38,438 bases of DNA from a virus (taxonomy: Duplodnaviria; Heunggongvirae; Uroviricota; Caudoviricetes): the IMG/VR virus record IMGVR_UViG_2534682287_000008, positions 1 through 38,438 of that record. One strand, given 5' to 3'. Both the position numbers and the translations under genes were made by a program. Within the stretch, counting starts at the first letter, position 1; every line of letters begins with the position of its first letter. Shown here piece by piece: positions 1-38,438 of the stretch. The notes below the pieces were generated by a model, which saw nothing but the letters and a program-made list of their open reading frames with translations, was not told the origin of the DNA and did not search any database.

Positions 1-1149
1 ATGCTCACCGTTAAGCAGATTGAAGCAGCAAAGCCGAAAGAAAAACCATACCGCCTTCTCGATGGTAATGGACTGTACCTTTATGTCCCTGTATCCGGGA
101 AAAAGGTATGGCAGCTTCGCTACAAGATTGACGGTAAGGAGAAAGTCCTAACCGTAGGAAAATATCCGCTAATGACTTTGCAGGAGGCAAGGGATAAGGC
201 ATGGACTGCGAGGAAAGACATCTCGGTTGGCATCGATCCGGTAAAAGCGAAAAAGGCTTCGTCTAACAACAATTCCTTTAGCGCCATTTACAAGGAATGG
301 TACGAGCACAAGAAGCAAGTCTGGTCAGTAGGCTATGCAAATGAACTTGCAAAAATGTTTGATGACGACATTTTACCTATCATCGGCGGCCTTGAAATTC
401 AGGATATTGAGCCGATGCAACTGCTGGAAGTAATCCGCAGATTTGAAGATCGAGGTGCAATGGAGCGAGCCAACAAAGCCCGCAGAAGATGCGGCGAGGT
501 TTTCCGTTACGCTATTGTCACTGGTAGGGCTAAATATAACCCGGCACCTGACCTTGCTGACGCCATGAAGGGATACCGCAAGAAGAACTTCCCGTTTCTT
601 CCAGCAGACCAGATCCCGGCATTCAACAAAGCACTTGCAACATTTTCAGGAAGTATCGTATCGCTCATTGCGACCAAAGTTTTACGCTACACAGCCCTAA
701 GAACGAAAGAGCTTCGTTCCATGCTATGGAAGAACGTCGATTTTGAAAACAGGATTATCACCATCGACGCCAGTGTGATGAAGGGCCGCAAGATTCATGT
801 AGTACCGATGTCAGACCAGGTGGTTGAACTTCTCACTACGCTAAGCTCAATCACCAAACCAGTATCAGAGTTTGTTTTTGCCGGTCGCAACGATAAGAAG
901 AAGCCAATCTGCGAGAACGCGGTACTGCTTGTGATCAAACAAATCGGCTATGAAGGTCTGGAAAGCGGTCACGGATTCAGGCATGAATTCAGCACGATTA
1001 TGAACGAGCACGAATGGCCTGCTGATGCTATTGAAGTGCAACTGGCACATGCCAACGGCGGTTCTGTGCGTGGAATTTACAACCATGCTCAGTATCTCGA
1101 TAAACGCAGAGAAATGATGCAATGGTGGGCGGACTGGCTTGATAGATAA
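1..1149 (+). CDS. int: Tyrosine integrase, P4-type
   Basis: 382 aa; N-terminus MLTVKQIEAAKPKEKPYRLLDGNGLYLYV typical of P4-family integrases; C-terminal catalytic region with HxxR...Y context; ATG at position 1. Confidence 0.9.
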   Translation: MLTVKQIEAAKPKEKPYRLLDGNGLYLYVPVSGKKVWQLRYKIDGKEKVLTVGKYPLMTLQEARDKAWTARKDISVGIDPVKAKKASSNNNSFSAIYKEWYEHKKQVWSVGYANELAKMFDDDILPIIGGLEIQDIEPMQLLEVIRRFEDRGAMERANKARRRCGEVFRYAIVTGRAKYNPAPDLADAMKGYRKKNFPFLPADQIPAFNKALATFSGSIVSLIATKVLRYTALRTKELRSMLWKNVDFENRIITIDASVMKGRKIHVVPMSDQVVELLTTLSSITKPVSEFVFAGRNDKKKPICENAVLLVIKQIGYEGLESGHGFRHEFSTIMNEHEWPADAIEVQLAHANGGSVRGIYNHAQYLDKRREMMQWWADWLDR

Positions 1150-28259: not shown

Positions 28260-28475
28260 TTAAGCGGCTTTGTGTTCCGGCGGGAACACGTCATCAAGAC
28301 TGACTTTTGCGCCTAACTTGTTTAGGCACTCAACAAGAGCACGGCATGTTTTAAGGTCTGGGAAGCGACGACCAGATTCCCAATGTCCGATAGCTCCCTG
28401 TGTGCATCCAACTGCCTTAGCAAGTGTTGTTTGAGAGATATTCAGTGACTCTCGATATTTTCGTAGGTTGCTCAT
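28260..28475 (-). CDS. cro: Cro-like repressor (HTH)
   Basis: 71 aa from MSNLRKY; [26 protein letters not shown]; GGAGGG upstream. Confidence 0.8.
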
Positions 28476-28501
28476 ATGCCCTCCATAGTAACCATGAAAC
28501 A

Positions 28502-28530
28502 ATAATACGATATGTACTTTTAGAATGCAA
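28502..28530 (-). promoter_or_regulatory. pR promoter with operator in spacer
   Basis: TTGCAT - 17 nt - TATTAT on minus strand; spacer contains AAAGTACATATCGTATT. Confidence 0.6.
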
Positions 28531-28588
28531 GCAAAAAAAATACATCTTGTGCATGGATGGTTTTAGTACAGAGCGTAATAATAAGGGT

Positions 28589-29248
28589 ATGAAAATGAAA
28601 TGGTATGAACTGGCTAGATCCAGAATGAAAGAGCTCGGCATAACTCAAGAGAAGTTAGCTGAAGAGCTTGGTATGACGCAGGGTGGAATTGGTCACTGGT
28701 TGCGCGGATCTCGTCATCCATCTCTTGACGAGATTGGTGTGGTGTTTAAATACCTTGGTATTGATAACGTCTCATTCAACCACGACGGTACATTTTCACC
28801 TGTTGGCGAATACTCATCTGCCCCCGTTAAAAAACAATATGAGTACCCTGTTTTTTCTCATGTTCAGGCCGGGATGTTCTCGCCTGAGCTTAGAACCTTT
28901 ACCAAAGGTGATGCGGAGAGATGGGTCAGCACAACCAAAAAAGCCAGTGATTGTGCGTTCTGGCTTGAAGTTGAAGGTAATTCCATGACCGCACCAACAG
29001 GATCCAAGCCAAGCTTTCCTGACGGGATGTTAATTCTCGTTGACCCTGAGCAGGCTGTTGAGCCAGGTGATTTCTGCATAGCCAGACTTGGTGGTGACGA
29101 GTTTACCTTCAAGAAACTGATCAGGGATAGCGGTCAGGTGTTCCTACAACCACTAAACCCGCAATATCCAATGATCCCATGCAATGATAGCTGTTCCGTT
29201 GTAGGGAAAGTTATCGCCAGCCAGTGGCCTGAAGAGACATTTAGTTAA
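28589..29248 (+). CDS. cI: CI-type prophage repressor (HTH + LexA-like S24 peptidase domain); start at 28589 or 28595
   Basis: [24 protein letters not shown]; C-terminal GNSM...K autocleavage-type domain. Confidence 0.85.
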
Positions 29249-29715: not shown

Positions 29716-30042
29716 ATGGATGCACAAACACGCCGCCGCGAACGTCGCGCAGAGAAACAGGCTCAATGGAAAGCAGCAAATCCCCTGTTGGTTGGGGTAA
29801 GCGCAAAGCCAGTTAACCGCCCTATTCTCTCGCTGAATCGCAAACCGAAATCACGAGTAGAAAGCGCACTGAATCCGATAGACCTTACGGTGCTGGCTGA
29901 ATACCACGAACAGATTGAAAGCAACCTGCAACGTATTGAGCGCAAGAATCAGCGCACATGGTACAGCAAGCCACGCAGTGAAATGGGTGTGACTTGTGTT
30001 GGTCGCCAGAAAATGAAATTAGGCAGCAAGCCACTTATTTGA
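29716..30042 (+). CDS. N: Antiterminator N (lambda-type)
   Basis: MDAQTRRRERRAEKQAQWKAANPLLVGVSAKPVNRPILSLNRKPKSRVESALNP matches lambda N. Confidence 0.9.
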   Translation: MDAQTRRRERRAEKQAQWKAANPLLVGVSAKPVNRPILSLNRKPKSRVESALNPIDLTVLAEYHEQIESNLQRIERKNQRTWYSKPRSEMGVTCVGRQKMKLGSKPLI

Positions 30043-33923: not shown

Positions 33924-34115
33924 ATGGACGGACAAATATCAATTGTTCGACCAGGAGCATGTGACGATCGCGAGATACGACTGATTATTCGTCTGGCGAT
34001 GGGGAAAACAATAACTGCTCTCATTACTCCAGAAAATCTCGCATTAGCGTTAACAGGAAAGTCAGACCTGCCAGTAGAGCTAAAGCTGCGAAATATTGAG
34101 ATTAAGGTGAAATAG
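33924..34115 (+). CDS. Small hypothetical protein
   Basis: 63 aa; AAAGGAGAG Shine-Dalgarno. Confidence 0.4.
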   Translation: MDGQISIVRPGACDDREIRLIIRLAMGKTITALITPENLALALTGKSDLPVELKLRNIEIKVK

Positions 34116-34117
34116 CT

Positions 34118-35062
34118 ATGACCACTATTACCAAAGAACGTATTGAATTGTTCATTAAAAATCCGCTTGAAAACGGGCTTACTCGTGGCGAACAAATGGA
34201 ACTGGCACGAATTGCGCTGGCATCGCTGGAAGCAGAGCCTGTGGCGTATATCATTCAGGACTCTGACGCTCGTAGTCGTGGAGAGAAAGGCATCCTTCGC
34301 TATTTCGCAAATATCAGCGACGAGGATATAAACGAGTACGAAATTACCGTAACTCCGCTTTACGCCGCCCCTCCAGAGACGGTATCTGTGCCTGATGCGA
34401 TGGAAATGGATGATGACTTTGACAGCGCGTTTGAACACGGAAAAGCTGTCGGCTGGAACGCCTATCGCGCAGCCATGCTTCAGTCCGGAAACTTTCGGGA
34501 AAACAAGAATTCGTCAACCAATAATTTTCGTGAAATCGCGGAAACGTCAACCAACTATCCGGTAATTCCTAGTGAGGTGTTGTCCGCAATCCAGAAGGTT
34601 GCCAAGATTCGTGCCGATTTCGATGATTTTGACGGTGACAGGCGAGGTATCGGTGATTGTCTGGATGAGGCTGAGCAAGAGCTTATCGTTACCATTAACA
34701 AATATGCCAGTCAGTTGGCAGCAGAACCTATCGCGCCTAATGACGTTCGAGAGCAGACAGCCATTCCGCAAGTTCCGGTAACTCCGGATGGTTGGATAAG
34801 CTGTAGTGAGAGAATGCCTGTAATCGGCGAGCTAAATTGGAGAACTAGTTTTCCTTTGCTGATTACGTGTGAGATCGGCGTTATACCAGCTTATTACGGC
34901 TTTGTGAGCGTTAATGGGAATAAGCATTATGGTTTTATGGAGAGTCTTAAATACGGAGACGATAACGGCAACCATCCTCAAACTAATGAATATGGTCTGA
35001 TTAGCAATGTCACACACTGGATGCCACTACCAGAACCGCCGCAGGAGGTTAACCGTGGCTAA
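34118..35062 (+). CDS. Hypothetical protein with DUF551-like C-terminal domain
   Basis: 314 aa; C-terminal W/C-containing region typical of phage DUF551 proteins (recalled). Confidence 0.5.
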   Translation: MTTITKERIELFIKNPLENGLTRGEQMELARIALASLEAEPVAYIIQDSDARSRGEKGILRYFANISDEDINEYEITVTPLYAAPPETVSVPDAMEMDDDFDSAFEHGKAVGWNAYRAAMLQSGNFRENKNSSTNNFREIAETSTNYPVIPSEVLSAIQKVAKIRADFDDFDGDRRGIGDCLDEAEQELIVTINKYASQLAAEPIAPNDVREQTAIPQVPVTPDGWISCSERMPVIGELNWRTSFPLLITCEIGVIPAYYGFVSVNGNKHYGFMESLKYGDDNGNHPQTNEYGLISNVTHWMPLPEPPQEVNRG

Positions 35063-35094
35063 CCTACAACTTGCCGTCAAAGGTGAATAACAAT

Positions 35095-35119
35095 CCTCGC
35101 ACTCGCGGGGATTTCTTTT
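35095..35119 (+). terminator. Rho-independent terminator upstream of the 266-aa gene
   Basis: CCTCGC-actc-GCGGGG followed by ATTTCTTTTA. Confidence 0.55.
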
Positions 35120-35132
35120 ATATGGGAATAAT

Positions 35133-35933
35133 ATGACCATCCACTTTCACGGCAGCCCAATATGGGGGGATGAGCATGCCCCTACAGATATGCTGATTAA
35201 AGCCCTTTACCGTGATGGTGGGGCTTTTGTTTCATTTGCCAGACCAGAGCAGATGAAAAAGATTGCCATGTTCCCTTGTGATATACGCCTTGATAACGGC
35301 GCTTTTAGCGACTGGATGAAAGCATTAAAGAAAGGCACTCCGGTAGACTGGAGTAAGAGACGAGCAAAATTCTACGACTTTGTTGGGAAGTGGTTCAGCA
35401 GAATTGAATGGTTTCTTATACCTGACGTTATCGAAGGGACAGAGGCAGAAAACGACGAGCAGATTGAGTTGGTTCCTGATTGGCTAAAATCAAAAGCGGT
35501 TCCGGTCTGGCATACCGACGAATCAATTGAACGTCTTTTACGCCTTTCTAGCAAATTTGAATGGGTGGCGATTGGATGCTGCGGACCACACAGGCACATA
35601 CGCTCTAAATGGTGGGAACAGAGAATGGATGAAGTTTTCACTGAGCTTTATATCAATCGTAATTTGAAAGTGAAAATTCATGGTCTTCGAATGCTCGACG
35701 TGAGAGTTCTTGGTATGTATCCGTTCGCCAGTGCGGATTCTACTAATGTTGCTGTTAACGTACCGAAGACAGAGAAGCGATTTCCTGAGATTACCGACAA
35801 ACTGGCACGCACAGCTGTACTTCGCGCTGCTATTGAAAAGGTGCACCCGCCATCGATATCAGCATGGGTAGACAGAAAGATGAGAGAGCCGGCGCAAGCC
35901 GGTTTTTTATTTGAATTCACCGACGCCGCTTAA
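35133..35933 (+). CDS. Hypothetical protein; candidate TGT-fold (DpdA-like) enzyme
   Basis: 266 aa; in-order motifs LDNGAFS, VAIGCCG, HGLRMLD, ADSTN reminiscent of tRNA-guanine transglycosylase family; flanked by terminators. Confidence 0.5.
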   Translation: MTIHFHGSPIWGDEHAPTDMLIKALYRDGGAFVSFARPEQMKKIAMFPCDIRLDNGAFSDWMKALKKGTPVDWSKRRAKFYDFVGKWFSRIEWFLIPDVIEGTEAENDEQIELVPDWLKSKAVPVWHTDESIERLLRLSSKFEWVAIGCCGPHRHIRSKWWEQRMDEVFTELYINRNLKVKIHGLRMLDVRVLGMYPFASADSTNVAVNVPKTEKRFPEITDKLARTAVLRAAIEKVHPPSISAWVDRKMREPAQAGFLFEFTDAA

Positions 35934-35978
35934 TGCGGATTTCTTTTATCTGAACTCGCTACGGCGAGTTTTGTTTTA
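35926..35978 (+). terminator. Tandem terminator hairpins after the 266-aa gene
   Basis: CCGC-ttaat-GCGG + ATTTCTTTT and AACTCGC-tacg-GCGAGTT + TTGTTTTA. Confidence 0.6.
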
Positions 35979-35990
35979 TGGAGACAAGAA

Positions 35991-36335
35991 ATGTCAGATT
36001 TGGCTATGAAGGTTTTGAAGTGGCAATCGACTGGCGATGTCGGCATCAGTAGCGCAACTCTTGCCTCAATCGCATGTGGACTGAAAAAGAATATCTATGG
36101 TCATCACTTCGGCGCTCCCCATGACGCAGCCGATTTCAGGCGATGCGTTGCGCTTGTCGAGCAGATTCCAGAAATCAGAGATTCATTCGACAAGGTTGCA
36201 AAGCGCGTTCCGGCATTCAAAGGAATCCTCAACGAATGGGATTCCCTAGTTGCTCTGTTGAAGTCTGAAATGAAGATACACGGAAACAAAGCACCAGAGA
36301 CTTACAGAAGAATTAGCGAGTTACGCAAGGACTAA
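35991..36335 (+). CDS. Hypothetical protein
   Basis: 114 aa; GGAGACAAG Shine-Dalgarno; followed by terminator. Confidence 0.5.
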   Translation: MSDLAMKVLKWQSTGDVGISSATLASIACGLKKNIYGHHFGAPHDAADFRRCVALVEQIPEIRDSFDKVAKRVPAFKGILNEWDSLVALLKSEMKIHGNKAPETYRRISELRKD

Positions 36336-36394
36336 CCACAGCCTCACACTCGATGAGGCCAGTTCATTTCTCAAGATATCCAGACCTACCATCG

Positions 36395-36416
36395 CCGCAT
36401 CAATGCGGTTTTTTTA
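36395..36416 (+). terminator. Rho-independent terminator
   Basis: CCGCA-tcaa-TGCGG followed by TTTTTTTATT. Confidence 0.6.
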
Positions 36417-36425
36417 TTGCCTGAT

Positions 36426-36441
36426 TTGCAGGTTCGATTCC
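36426..36441 (+). other. tRNA T-arm-like fragment (TTGCAGGTTCGATTCC)
   Basis: Canonical GGTTCGAtTCC T-loop signature, but no acceptor 3' strand follows. Confidence 0.5.
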
Positions 36442-36460
36442 CTATTCGGAGATAGCACTC

Positions 36461-36661
36461 ATGCAACACGAACTACAGCCTGATTCACTGGTTGATTTGA
36501 AATTCATCATGGCCGATACTGGCTTCGGTAAAACCTTCATCTACGACCGGATTAAGTCCGGCGACCTGCCAAAAGCCAAAGTTATCCACGGACGAGCAAG
36601 ATGGTTATATCGTGACCATTGTGAATTCAAAAATAAGCTCTTAAGCCGCGCTAATGGGTAA
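36461..36661 (+). CDS. AlpA/Xis-family excisionase-like DNA-binding protein
   Basis: 66 aa; LVDLKFIMADTGFGKTFIYDRIKSGDLPKAKVIHGRARWLYRD fits AlpA-family winged helix. Confidence 0.7.
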   Translation: MQHELQPDSLVDLKFIMADTGFGKTFIYDRIKSGDLPKAKVIHGRARWLYRDHCEFKNKLLSRANG

Positions 36662-36734
36662 AATAGCGGGTAAAATATTTCTCACATCTAAAAAATATCA
36701 TTCTAATCAATCCCCTGCCGCGCCAAGTAGATGT

Positions 36735-36749
36735 CTGCAGGGGACACCA
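36735..36749 (+). other. tRNA-Arg-like 3' end (CTGCAGGGGACACCA); probable attR core
   Basis: Matches recalled 3' end of argW-type tRNA; flanked by inverted repeat CCCCTGC...GCAGGGG. Confidence 0.5.
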
Positions 36750-37190
36750 GATACCCTTCAAACGAAATCTACCTTCACCCCGTAAAAGATGGGTTTGGCA
36801 GCACACTTGCCTTATATCTACTCATTTTTACTGCAACAGGTTGAAATCTCAGCACTGTCAGAAAGCGCTGATGACTAAACAGCCCTGGGCCGGGCGATGT
36901 AACCATCACACAGAATCCTGATAGCGAAATATGGCGTGACTCGATACTTCACTCCGCAATGCATTCCTTGATGAATTCGCAGGACCGTGATACACGGGAC
37001 AGGTCACTGAATGACGACAATGTCCTGGAAATCAGCGAACCGCGCATCTGAAGTACATTTGAGCGACTGTACCAGAACATGAATGAGGCGTTTGGATTAG
37101 GCGATTATTAGCAGGGCTAAGCATTTTACTATTATTATTTTCCGGTTGAGGGATATAGAGCTATCGACAACAACCGGAAAAAGTTTACGT

Positions 37191-38438
37191 CTATATTGCT
37201 GAAGGTACAGGCGTTTCCATAACTATTTGCTCGCGTTTTTTACTCAAGAAGAAAATGCCAAATAGCAACATCAGGCAGACAATACCCGAAATTGCGAAGA
37301 AAACTGTCTGGTAGCCTGCGTGGTCAAAGAGTATCCCAGTCGGCGTTGAAAGCAGCACAATCCCAAGCGAACTGGCAATTTGAAAACCAATCAGAAAGAT
37401 CGTCGACGACAGGCGCTTATCAAAGTTTGCCACGCTGTATTTGAAGACGGATATGACACAAAGTGGAACCTCAATGGCATGTAACAACTTCACTAATGAA
37501 ATAATCCAGGGGTTAACGAACAGCGCGCAGGAAAGGATACGCAACGCCATAATCACAACTCCGATAAGTAATGCATTTTTTGGCCCTACCCGATTCACAA
37601 AGAAAGGAATAATCGCCATGCACAGCGCTTCGAGTACCACCTGGAATGAGTTGAGATAACCATACAGGCGCGTTCCTACATCGTGTGATTCGAATAAACC
37701 TGCATAAAAGACAGGAAAAAGTTGTTGATCAAAAATGTTATAGAAAGACCACGTCCCCACAATAAATATGACGAAAACCCAGAAGTTTCGATCCTTGAAA
37801 ACTGCGATAAAATCCTCTTTTTTTACCCCTCCCGCATCTGCCGCTACGCACTGGTGATCCTTATCTTTAAAACGCATGTTGATCATCATAAATACAGCGC
37901 CAAATAGCGAGACCAACCAGAAGTTGATATGGGGACTGATACTAAAAAATATGCCGGCAAAGAACGCGCCAATAGCATAGCCAAAAGATCCCCAGGCGCG
38001 CGCTGTTCCATATTCGAAATGAAAATTTCGCGCCATTTTTTCGGTGAAGCTATCAAGCAAACCGCATCCCGCCAGATACCCCAAGCCAAAAAATAGCGCC
38101 CCCAGAATTAGACCTACAGAAAAATTGCTTTGCAGTAACGGTTCATAAACGTAAATCATAAACGGTCCGGTCAAGACCAGGATGAAACTCATACACCAGA
38201 TGAGCGGTTTCTTCAGACCGAGTTTATCCTGAACGATGCCGTAGAACATCATAAATAGAATGCTGGTAAACTGGTTGACCGAATAAAGTGTACCTAATTC
38301 CGTCCCTGTCAACCCTAGATGTCCTTTCAGCCAAATAGCGTATAACGACCACCACAGCGACCAGGAAATAAAAAAGAGAAATGAGTAACTGGATGCAAAA
38401 CGATAGTACGCATTTCTGAATGGAATATTCAGTGCCAT
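37191..38438 (-). CDS. cscB: LacY-family oligosaccharide:H+ symporter (sucrose permease CscB-like); host gene
   Basis: 415 aa, 12 predicted transmembrane segments; LacY-like N-terminus; start coincides with window end. Confidence 0.8.
   Translation of the reverse strand: MALNIPFRNAYYRFASSYSFLFFISWSLWWSLYAIWLKGHLGLTGTELGTLYSVNQFTSILFMMFYGIVQDKLGLKKPLIWCMSFILVLTGPFMIYVYEPLLQSNFSVGLILGALFFGLGYLAGCGLLDSFTEKMARNFHFEYGTARAWGSFGYAIGAFFAGIFFSISPHINFWLVSLFGAVFMMINMRFKDKDHQCVAADAGGVKKEDFIAVFKDRNFWVFVIFIVGTWSFYNIFDQQLFPVFYAGLFESHDVGTRLYGYLNSFQVVLEALCMAIIPFFVNRVGPKNALLIGVVIMALRILSCALFVNPWIISLVKLLHAIEVPLCVISVFKYSVANFDKRLSSTIFLIGFQIASSLGIVLLSTPTGILFDHAGYQTVFFAISGIVCLMLLFGIFFLSKKREQIVMETPVPSAI

Follow-up and report, generated by a model that had tools for sequence, protein, structure and literature searches.

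The DNA considered here is the IMG/VR virus record IMGVR_UViG_2534682287_000008, a Caudoviricetes sequence of 38,438 nucleotides (hereafter, the window), and its element of interest is a plus-strand gene encoding a 266-residue protein that probably belongs to the DpdA enzymes, which exchange guanine for 7-deazaguanine bases in DNA. An earlier reading made from the sequence alone had suggested a DpdA-like member of the tRNA-guanine transglycosylase (TGT) superfamily, transcribed on its own and protecting phage DNA against restriction; our computational follow-up supports the first of these suggestions and speaks against the other two. The ATG at 35133 is the correct start codon, since the N-terminus that it opens (MTIHFHG) is conserved in homologs. 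The gene and the codons of its predicted active site are as follows, with residue counterparts given for the validated DpdA of phage 9g and for a bacterial DpdA (bDpdA):

35133-35933, plus strand: dpdA-like gene, ATG start, 266 amino acids, a compact (beta/alpha)8-barrel homolog of DNA-guanine transglycosylases without the zinc subdomain
35292-35294, plus strand: codon of D54 (LDNGAF), predicted general acid/base, at the position of 9g D72 and bDpdA Asp95
35424-35426, plus strand: codon of D98 (IPDVIEG), predicted base-recognition aspartate, 9g D114
35511-35513, plus strand: codon of H127 (PVWH), predicted base-binding histidine, 9g H141
35679-35681, plus strand: codon of H183 (KIHGLR), counterpart of the conserved 9g His196 (9g KVH196GFG aligns)
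35736-35738, plus strand: codon of D202 (SADSTN), predicted catalytic nucleophile, at the position of 9g D215 and bDpdA Asp256

Profile searches place the protein in a phage family. It matches PHROG 887, labelled 'queuine tRNA-ribosyltransferase', over its full length (E = 1.3e-102), and a profile built from 65 family sequences aligns by hhalign to the experimentally validated DpdA of phage 9g over 161 columns with 98.3% probability (E = 2e-14); a smaller profile of 33 sequences returned 95.2% for the same comparison. A tblastn search of the window with 9g DpdA also found this open reading frame (ORF), at E = 0.003. The order of TGT/DpdA motifs that had led to the DpdA-like suggestion is real and not a matter of chance. 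LDNGAFS, PVWH, VAIGCCG, KIHGLRML and SADSTN pair with LDSGAFS, PCFH, TLGGLVG, KVHGFGIT and SCDSSS of the 9g enzyme, and the correspondences proposed from the sequence coincide with invariant residues of the family. Our preferred reading, which we consider probable, is a 'singleton' phage DpdA: a minimal triosephosphate isomerase (TIM)-barrel enzyme of the TGT superfamily that has no zinc site and acts on DNA. It is homologous to a validated phage DpdA, has the barrel fold and sits in an early-left cassette, and the window contains no precursor-synthesis genes.

Only six columns are invariant among the 65 homologs, which reach down to 26% identity: D54, D98, H127, H183, D202 and S203. The first five align to D72, D114, H141, H196 and D215 of 9g DpdA, of which His196 is conserved in DpdA and absent from DpdA2 (PMC6884629). 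In bDpdA, Asp95 serves as general acid/base and Asp256 as nucleophile, and the base is held by Asp130 and His181 (PMC10164549). We infer a mapping onto Asp95, Phe99, His181 and Asp256 of that enzyme: F58 lies four residues after D54, matching the Asp95/Phe99 spacing, and the 75 residues from H127 to D202 equal the distance from His181 to Asp256. The alignments show the predicted DpdA catalytic residue set to be retained in full.

The AlphaFold2 model is confident, with a predicted local distance difference test (pLDDT) score of 88 and a predicted template modeling (pTM) score of 0.86. Eight alternating beta strands make up the model. The invariant residues sit at the C-terminal ends of strands or just beyond them, with D202 ending the last barrel strand (200-203); residues 255-266 fall below a pLDDT of 50. 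The modeled (beta/alpha)8 barrel comes out closest to TGT/DpdA structures; unrelated TIM barrels follow within ~1 Z unit, and a Foldseek search of the PDB cannot tell the two apart. In the BFVD viral structure library, all named matches at E < 1e-4 are phage 'queuine tRNA-ribosyltransferase'. Fold alone would not settle the identity of the protein, because unrelated TIM barrels score nearly as high.

Structural rank also raises a Cap10-like enzyme, one that would join a 7-deazaguanine base to protein ('deazaguanylation'), a reading that we find barely credible. Its Foldseek E-value is marginal, with similar scores for generic barrels, the recurrent neighbors of the family are a VUT transporter and DNA methyltransferases, and no Cap9/QueC-like or cGAS/DncV-like nucleotidyltransferase (CD-NTase) partner was found in the window by tblastn for QueC and by PADLOC; the resemblance to Cap10 is structural only.

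Several results weigh against a DpdA. The Pfam scan of the protein, a check suggested by the sequence-only reading with PF01702 (TGT) in mind, returned no family up to E = 1, PF01702 included, and neither NCBIfam nor the PADLOC DpdA models matched. HMMER searches against PDB sequences (phmmer and hmmsearch, using the single protein and the 33- and 65-sequence profiles) gave chance matches only, a snake-venom metalloproteinase and GCN4 among them. The hhalign comparison of the family profile with E. coli Tgt, which entered as a single sequence, failed at 0.3% probability. The zinc site and the Ins8 domain of bacterial DpdA/TGT are absent. From the literature come three further points: no modification was obtained with the singleton DpdA of Mycobacterium phage Orion, the authors of the 2019 survey allow for functional divergence of singleton DpdAs (both PMC6884629), and the relatives that were tested carry dADG rather than dPreQ0.

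The negatives from the libraries are not counted against the DpdA assignment, because validated 9g DpdA fails in the same way, with no match to Pfam TGT or to any PDB sequence. As to the zinc subdomain, its lack had been correctly noted: no CxCxxC...H motif exists in the protein, its only cysteines (C49, C149 and C150) are not conserved, and the chain ends 64 residues past the predicted nucleophile D202. This is no argument against a phage DpdA, because 9g DpdA is likewise devoid of CxCxxC. The same data bear on a true tRNA-guanine transglycosylase that would alter wobble modification of host or phage tRNA during infection. The RefSeq/PHROG label 'queuine tRNA-ribosyltransferase' would suit such an enzyme, and so would the TGT-superfamily fold with its catalytic residues; we nevertheless rate it as improbable, since the protein has none of the tRNA-binding elements, matches DNA-acting DpdA but fails to match Tgt, and belongs to a family whose fusion partners are DNA methyltransferases.

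No queC, queD, queE, folE or VUT gene was found in the window by tblastn with phage 9g and phage VUT proteins, which agrees with what the sequence-only reading had said of queC/queD/queE/folE-like genes, and PADLOC returned no match for the protein or its four neighbors.

The gene is the center of a small cassette whose parts are the following:

35086-35993, plus strand: dpdA cassette (terminator, dpdA, terminators), a 908-bp mosaic unit
35092-35122, plus strand: upstream intrinsic terminator (hairpin 35092-35113), with a 9-bp G+C-rich stem, a tetraloop and a U-rich tail
35124-35127, plus strand: weak Shine-Dalgarno-like GGGA, 5 nt upstream of the ATG, from direct reading of the sequence
35883-35915, plus strand: intragenic terminator-like hairpin (35883-35908, GCCGGC-GCAA-GCCGGU) followed by UUUUUU, from scan and folding
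35952-35980, plus strand: downstream intrinsic terminator (hairpin 35952-35971 and U-rich tail), ending at the right edge of the cassette

The 908 bp are 99.6% identical to a prophage of E. coli H9 and 97.9% identical to phage HK106, with unrelated flanks. The edges are sharp and lie at the outer sides of the flanking terminators: different genes surround the cassette in HK106, in the H9 prophage and in 28 IMG/VR contigs, in most of which the breakpoints recur at ~35084-35088 and ~35984. The right flank of the window, from the phrog_1229 gene onward, is common to only three of these contigs (L022, L023 and L027). Judging from these junctions, lambdoid and P22-like prophages exchange the cassette as one block. 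The gene occurs in 82 of 5,426 complete E. coli genomes, and all 15 of the 15 listed records among those carriers annotate it as 'hypothetical protein'. At large, the family comprises mostly compact proteins of 240-280 amino acids and amounts to 2,229 clusters at 90% identity (478 representatives at 50% identity), with 109 phage records. Comparison with HK106 gives a ratio of nonsynonymous to synonymous substitution rates (dN/dS) of 0.14, and comparison with an 88%-identical relative gives 0.07, values that show dpdA to be under purifying selection.

Both flanking hairpins, found by consensus scan and RNA folding, are well supported, as had been claimed. The upstream one folds at -13.1 kcal/mol (z = -5.1; none of 200 shuffles matched it) and the downstream one at -11.9 kcal/mol (z = -3.6 against shuffles), each far better than shuffled sequence. 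A weak 4-bp hairpin (35926-35938) spans the stop codon of dpdA, with -6.8 kcal/mol and z = -1.8. The strongest terminator-like hairpin of the region is the one at 35883-35908 (-16.8 kcal/mol, z = -5.2), 25 nt before the dpdA stop. It had been missed by the sequence-only reading and lies within the last 50 nt of the ORF, where the stretch 35883-35915 codes for the disordered, poorly conserved C-terminal tail EPAQAGFLFEF; in relatives with a Dam fusion the reading frame runs on from this point into the methyltransferase domain. Absent antitermination, stopping at this hairpin would leave a non-stop dpdA mRNA. Terminator-like sites are enriched over 34000-37200, where 10 were observed against 3.0 +/- 1.7 in shuffles, and more such hairpins stand 3' of the phrog_1229 gene (36341-36359 and 36394-36409). 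The repeated GATTTCTTTTAT that follows two of the hairpins was considered as a pair of cassette end repeats and rejected, both copies being plain terminator tails. The remark that no clear Shine-Dalgarno precedes the gene is a fair one, GGGA being the sole candidate.

Gene order around the family was surveyed in 79 IMG/VR loci. Of the 25 loci whose DpdA is 57-88% identical to ours, 20 have a PF02592 gene of the VUT/YhhQ family, to which the preQ0 transporter YhhQ belongs, that terminates at the DpdA start codon or runs into it; a VUT gene directly upstream is seen in none of the 28 E. coli-clade loci and in one of 26 loci at 40-48% identity. Under our locus labels the VUT-DpdA pairs fall in L036-L060 (e.g., L040:3483-4001, together with L006:4540-5004) and at L009:3028-3504. 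The same VUT-then-DpdA arrangement is also present in phage Phleasolo. These phage VUT proteins are short and reach the NCBIfam queuosine-precursor-transporter models only below the cut-off. When the E. coli clade is aligned with VUT-bearing relatives, homology starts exactly at the ATG and the upstream terminator sits at the VUT position; in place of GGGA those relatives have AAGGAAGAG, inside an upstream gene whose stop overlaps the DpdA start.

Fusions are a second recurrent feature. A DpdA-Dam protein of 460 amino acids has a DpdA part 76% identical to the window protein, a D12 adenine methyltransferase is joined to DpdA in a protein of 421 amino acids, and a QueD/PTPS-DpdA fusion measures 335 amino acids. 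The entries that bear fusions are P0006 (L006-L008:5001-6383), P0127, P0211 (L005:2840-3847), L044 and L046-L048, the last three loci with longer fusions of ~570 amino acids and weak Dam similarity. As far as gene order and fusions can tell, these neighborhoods tie the family to 7-deazaguanine precursors and DNA modification.

We tentatively propose, as a possibility that we hold with limited confidence, that the ancestral unit, as seen in the closest relatives outside E. coli, was a translationally coupled pair of VUT/YhhQ-like transporter and DpdA, salvaging 7-deazaguanine precursors in order to mark phage DNA sparsely and probably at specific sequences. The cassette of E. coli and HK106 would then be a transporter-less derivative relying on host preQ0, and the mark would serve a purpose other than bulk anti-restriction, such as countering one specific defense system, self-marking or regulation. 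In the 2019 survey, phage YhhQ homologs were uncorrelated with any phage DpdA group (Hutinet et al. 2019, PMC6884629); since no YhhQ-DpdA correlation was seen there, the coupling reported here would refine that picture.

Loss of the partner could instead mean that the E. coli cassette is a decaying passenger, left functionless together with the loss of a good ribosome-binding site. The distribution of VUT (0 of 28 E. coli-clade loci against 20 of 25 among the next-closest relatives) is compatible with this, and so are the weak Shine-Dalgarno and a terminator directly upstream. Decay appears very unlikely all the same: the gene is full length in 79 of the 82 E. coli carriers, it keeps all catalytic residues, and its dN/dS stays at 0.07-0.14. 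Moreover, the transporter should be dispensable in E. coli because this host makes preQ0 itself, and deletion of yhhQ had no effect in phage CAjan.

Gene content identifies the window as a P22/Sf6-like lambdoid prophage, organized around these genes:

1-1149, plus strand: integrase, followed by an O-acetyltransferase gene
28424-29248, plus strand: repressor
29716-30042, plus strand: N-like antitermination protein (phrog_271, E = 8.7e-27), at the head of the early-left operon
34118-35062, plus strand: DUF551 protein, 314 amino acids, directly upstream of dpdA
35991-36335, plus strand: phrog_1229 protein (114 amino acids, function not annotated), immediately downstream of dpdA
36461-36661, plus strand: TorI-type excisionase (phrog_66), last prophage gene before the host junction

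After the N-like gene, kil, erf, ssb, abc2 and several ea-type genes follow on the same strand, whereas the tailspike, structural, lysis, Q, nin and replication genes occupy the minus strand. The excisionase region is 95.9% identical at the nucleotide level to the one annotated as torI in E. coli H9, and a host oligosaccharide major facilitator superfamily (MFS) transporter gene begins at 37191, past the right junction. With the excisionase and then a host gene in this order, the placement of dpdA in an accessory arm next to the attachment site (attR) proved correct. The neighbor across that junction, here the MFS transporter, is dsdC for the H9 prophage carrying the same cassette. Integrase and excisionase lie at opposite prophage ends, as they do in E. 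coli KplE1/CPS-53 and in Sf6/HK620.

The two genes adjoining dpdA deserve a brief description. The 314-residue upstream protein is a mosaic in which the DUF551 domain is confined to the last 85 residues; its N-terminal and middle parts match PHROGs without function (phrog_60, 14306, 660 and 3323), and short patches of it recur beside the dpdA cassette in other loci. Downstream, the phrog_1229 gene accompanies dpdA also in L040, the 88%-identical, VUT-bearing relative (86.8% nucleotide identity over 35133-36500), and HK106 and most E. coli loci have a small lambda-p35-like gene in its place.

This layout does not favor the independently transcribed moron that the sequence-only reading had proposed. 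That proposal fails because only ~10 nt separate the U-tract of the upstream terminator from the dpdA ATG and because no promoter-like (sigma-70-like) site was found on the plus strand of 34628-37107 by a consensus scan, which atypical promoters could escape; the gene, besides, stands behind an N-like gene in an early-left position. Transcription from a promoter that overlaps the upstream terminator, or of a leaderless mRNA, was also considered and set aside: the best -10-like element, AATAAT (35127-35132), is not accompanied by a usable -35 and would place the transcription start within the ORF. Instead, dpdA lies in the early-left operon, downstream of the N-like antiterminator, and the flanking terminators fit an expression that would be limited to antiterminated early lytic transcription.

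On this basis, a route can be sketched for the singleton DpdA. After induction or infection, N-antiterminated transcription would pass the flanking terminators and DpdA would be made early. D202 would attack C1' of the target deoxyguanosine while D54 protonates the leaving guanine, giving a covalent enzyme-DNA intermediate. D98, H127, F58 and H183 would hold the 7-deazaguanine base, presumably preQ0 supplied by the host FolE-QueD-QueE-QueC pathway, which D54 would deprotonate so that it takes the place of guanine, following the double-displacement route of TGT/DpdA. By analogy with the nearest relatives that were tested, the expected outcome is a sparse mark, dADG or dPreQ0 at roughly 0.02-0.13% of guanines, and not bulk replacement.

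These figures come from two phages. Salmonella phage 7-11 DNA contains dADG at 50 per 10^6 nt, ~0.02% of G (PMC6884629), and Pantoea phage MED16 DNA contains 354 per 10^6 nt, ~0.13% of G; calculated from both levels, a genome of ~40 kb would carry from a few to a few tens of modified sites. Host-made precursors are a plausible source. 9g DpdA expressed alone in E. coli inserts preQ0 into DNA (PMC6884629), folE and queC mutants of CAjan in E. coli K-12 still incorporate host-derived preQ0, 12-fold less, and reliance on host-made precursor is the published hypothesis for the DpdA-only group (PMC6884629), with which the suggestion of the sequence-only reading would agree.

Its other suggestion, anti-restriction, is doubtful in any strong form. 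In addition to the low levels in 7-11 and MED16, MED16 DNA was cut at every G-containing restriction site tested, with no protection, and CAjan mutants restricted to host-made preQ0 become restriction-sensitive; by analogy, strong protection by the window DpdA seems doubtful too. The same observations favor a TGT-fold enzyme that acts on DNA without a protective bulk role, either marking DNA rarely and at specific sequences (in the service of regulation, packaging or self-recognition, or to escape one particular defense system) or working as a glycosylase or base-exchange enzyme on the host chromosome or on superinfecting phage DNA. Roles of the modification in regulation or packaging were raised by the authors of the MED16 study, the gene occupies an accessory region in temperate phages and is mobile as a cassette, and the adenine methyltransferase fusions suggest a site-specific epigenetic module. 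The protein, however, has no PADLOC defense-system match, no promoter was found that would serve expression in the lysogen, and in BTP1, which has a 35%-identical homolog, lysogenic expression is reported for bstA, pid, gtrA and gtrC. We regard this explanation as rather unlikely overall; within it, a role of the sparse DNA mark other than restriction evasion is the most credible alternative.

It is worth stressing that reading motif order without tools correctly picked a divergent TGT-superfamily enzyme that Pfam, NCBIfam and PGAP miss. Among phages with 7-deazaguanines, the 'DpdA-only' group is both the largest and the one least understood, with tiny modification levels, and the cassette would make a convenient system, because it combines an inducible E. 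coli prophage with a host queuosine pathway that is genetically tractable. Questions that it could address are whether host preQ0 can be diverted into DNA, where it is inserted and to what purpose. The current picture of the field is unchanged by the finding; a small new observation is that VUT and DpdA are tightly coupled in the nearest clade and that the E. coli cassette has lost this coupling.

Among the named systems compared, bacterial Tgt (PF01702) acts on another substrate, and the window protein, which has no Pfam or hhalign match to it, is devoid of the zinc subdomain and of the tRNA-binding insertions. bDpdA of Salmonella Montevideo (PDB 7UI4) has 413 amino acids, with Ins1-3 and an Ins8 of 128 residues that a CxCx2Cx22H zinc site holds in place, none of which is present here; it needs the DpdB ATPase and is part of a restriction-modification island (PMC10164549), whereas the neighbors in the window are phage early genes, with no DpdB or dpdC-K. 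Cap10 of type IV CBASS, the cyclic oligonucleotide-based antiphage signaling system (PDB 9NTN), works with the QueC-like Cap9 and attaches deazaguanine to a CD-NTase, partners that are lacking here. 9g/CAjan DpdA (DpdA1) has the D...D...H...H...D catalytic pattern and no CxCxxC zinc motif in common with our protein; identity is ~20%, the 9g protein is longer (317 amino acids, with an N-terminal extension of ~65 and a C-terminal one of ~85 residues), its gene belongs to a folE-queD-queE-queC cluster, and it gives 25-32% guanine replacement, protecting against restriction.

Singleton enzymes are closer. MED16 DpdA, the sole que-related gene product of that phage, is 43% identical over 96% and matches TGT 2ASH by HHpred with 99.2% probability; MED16 differs in being a virulent siphovirus with a separate Dam-like methyltransferase. 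The singleton DpdA of phage 7-11, gp032, shows 58% identity over 89% of the protein and likewise comes from a phage without preQ0 pathway genes, although 7-11 is virulent, with 90 kb, and its gene lies among nucleotide-metabolism genes. Closest of all is HK106 gp29 (YP_007151699), with 98.4% nucleotide and 98.5% amino acid identity over the full length. It is part of the same 908-bp cassette, likewise placed in the early-left accessory region, with xis and int following a few genes downstream. The backbone is different, lambda/HK97-like siphovirus in HK106 against a P22/Sf6-like prophage at a TorI/IntS-type site here, and so are the flanking genes. RefSeq names gp29 a queuine tRNA-ribosyltransferase, and Supplementary Data 1 of Hutinet et al. 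2019 (PMC6884629) lists it as the DpdA of a 'DpdA-only' phage. The gene type is thus already known, because a near-identical protein has been catalogued as DpdA.

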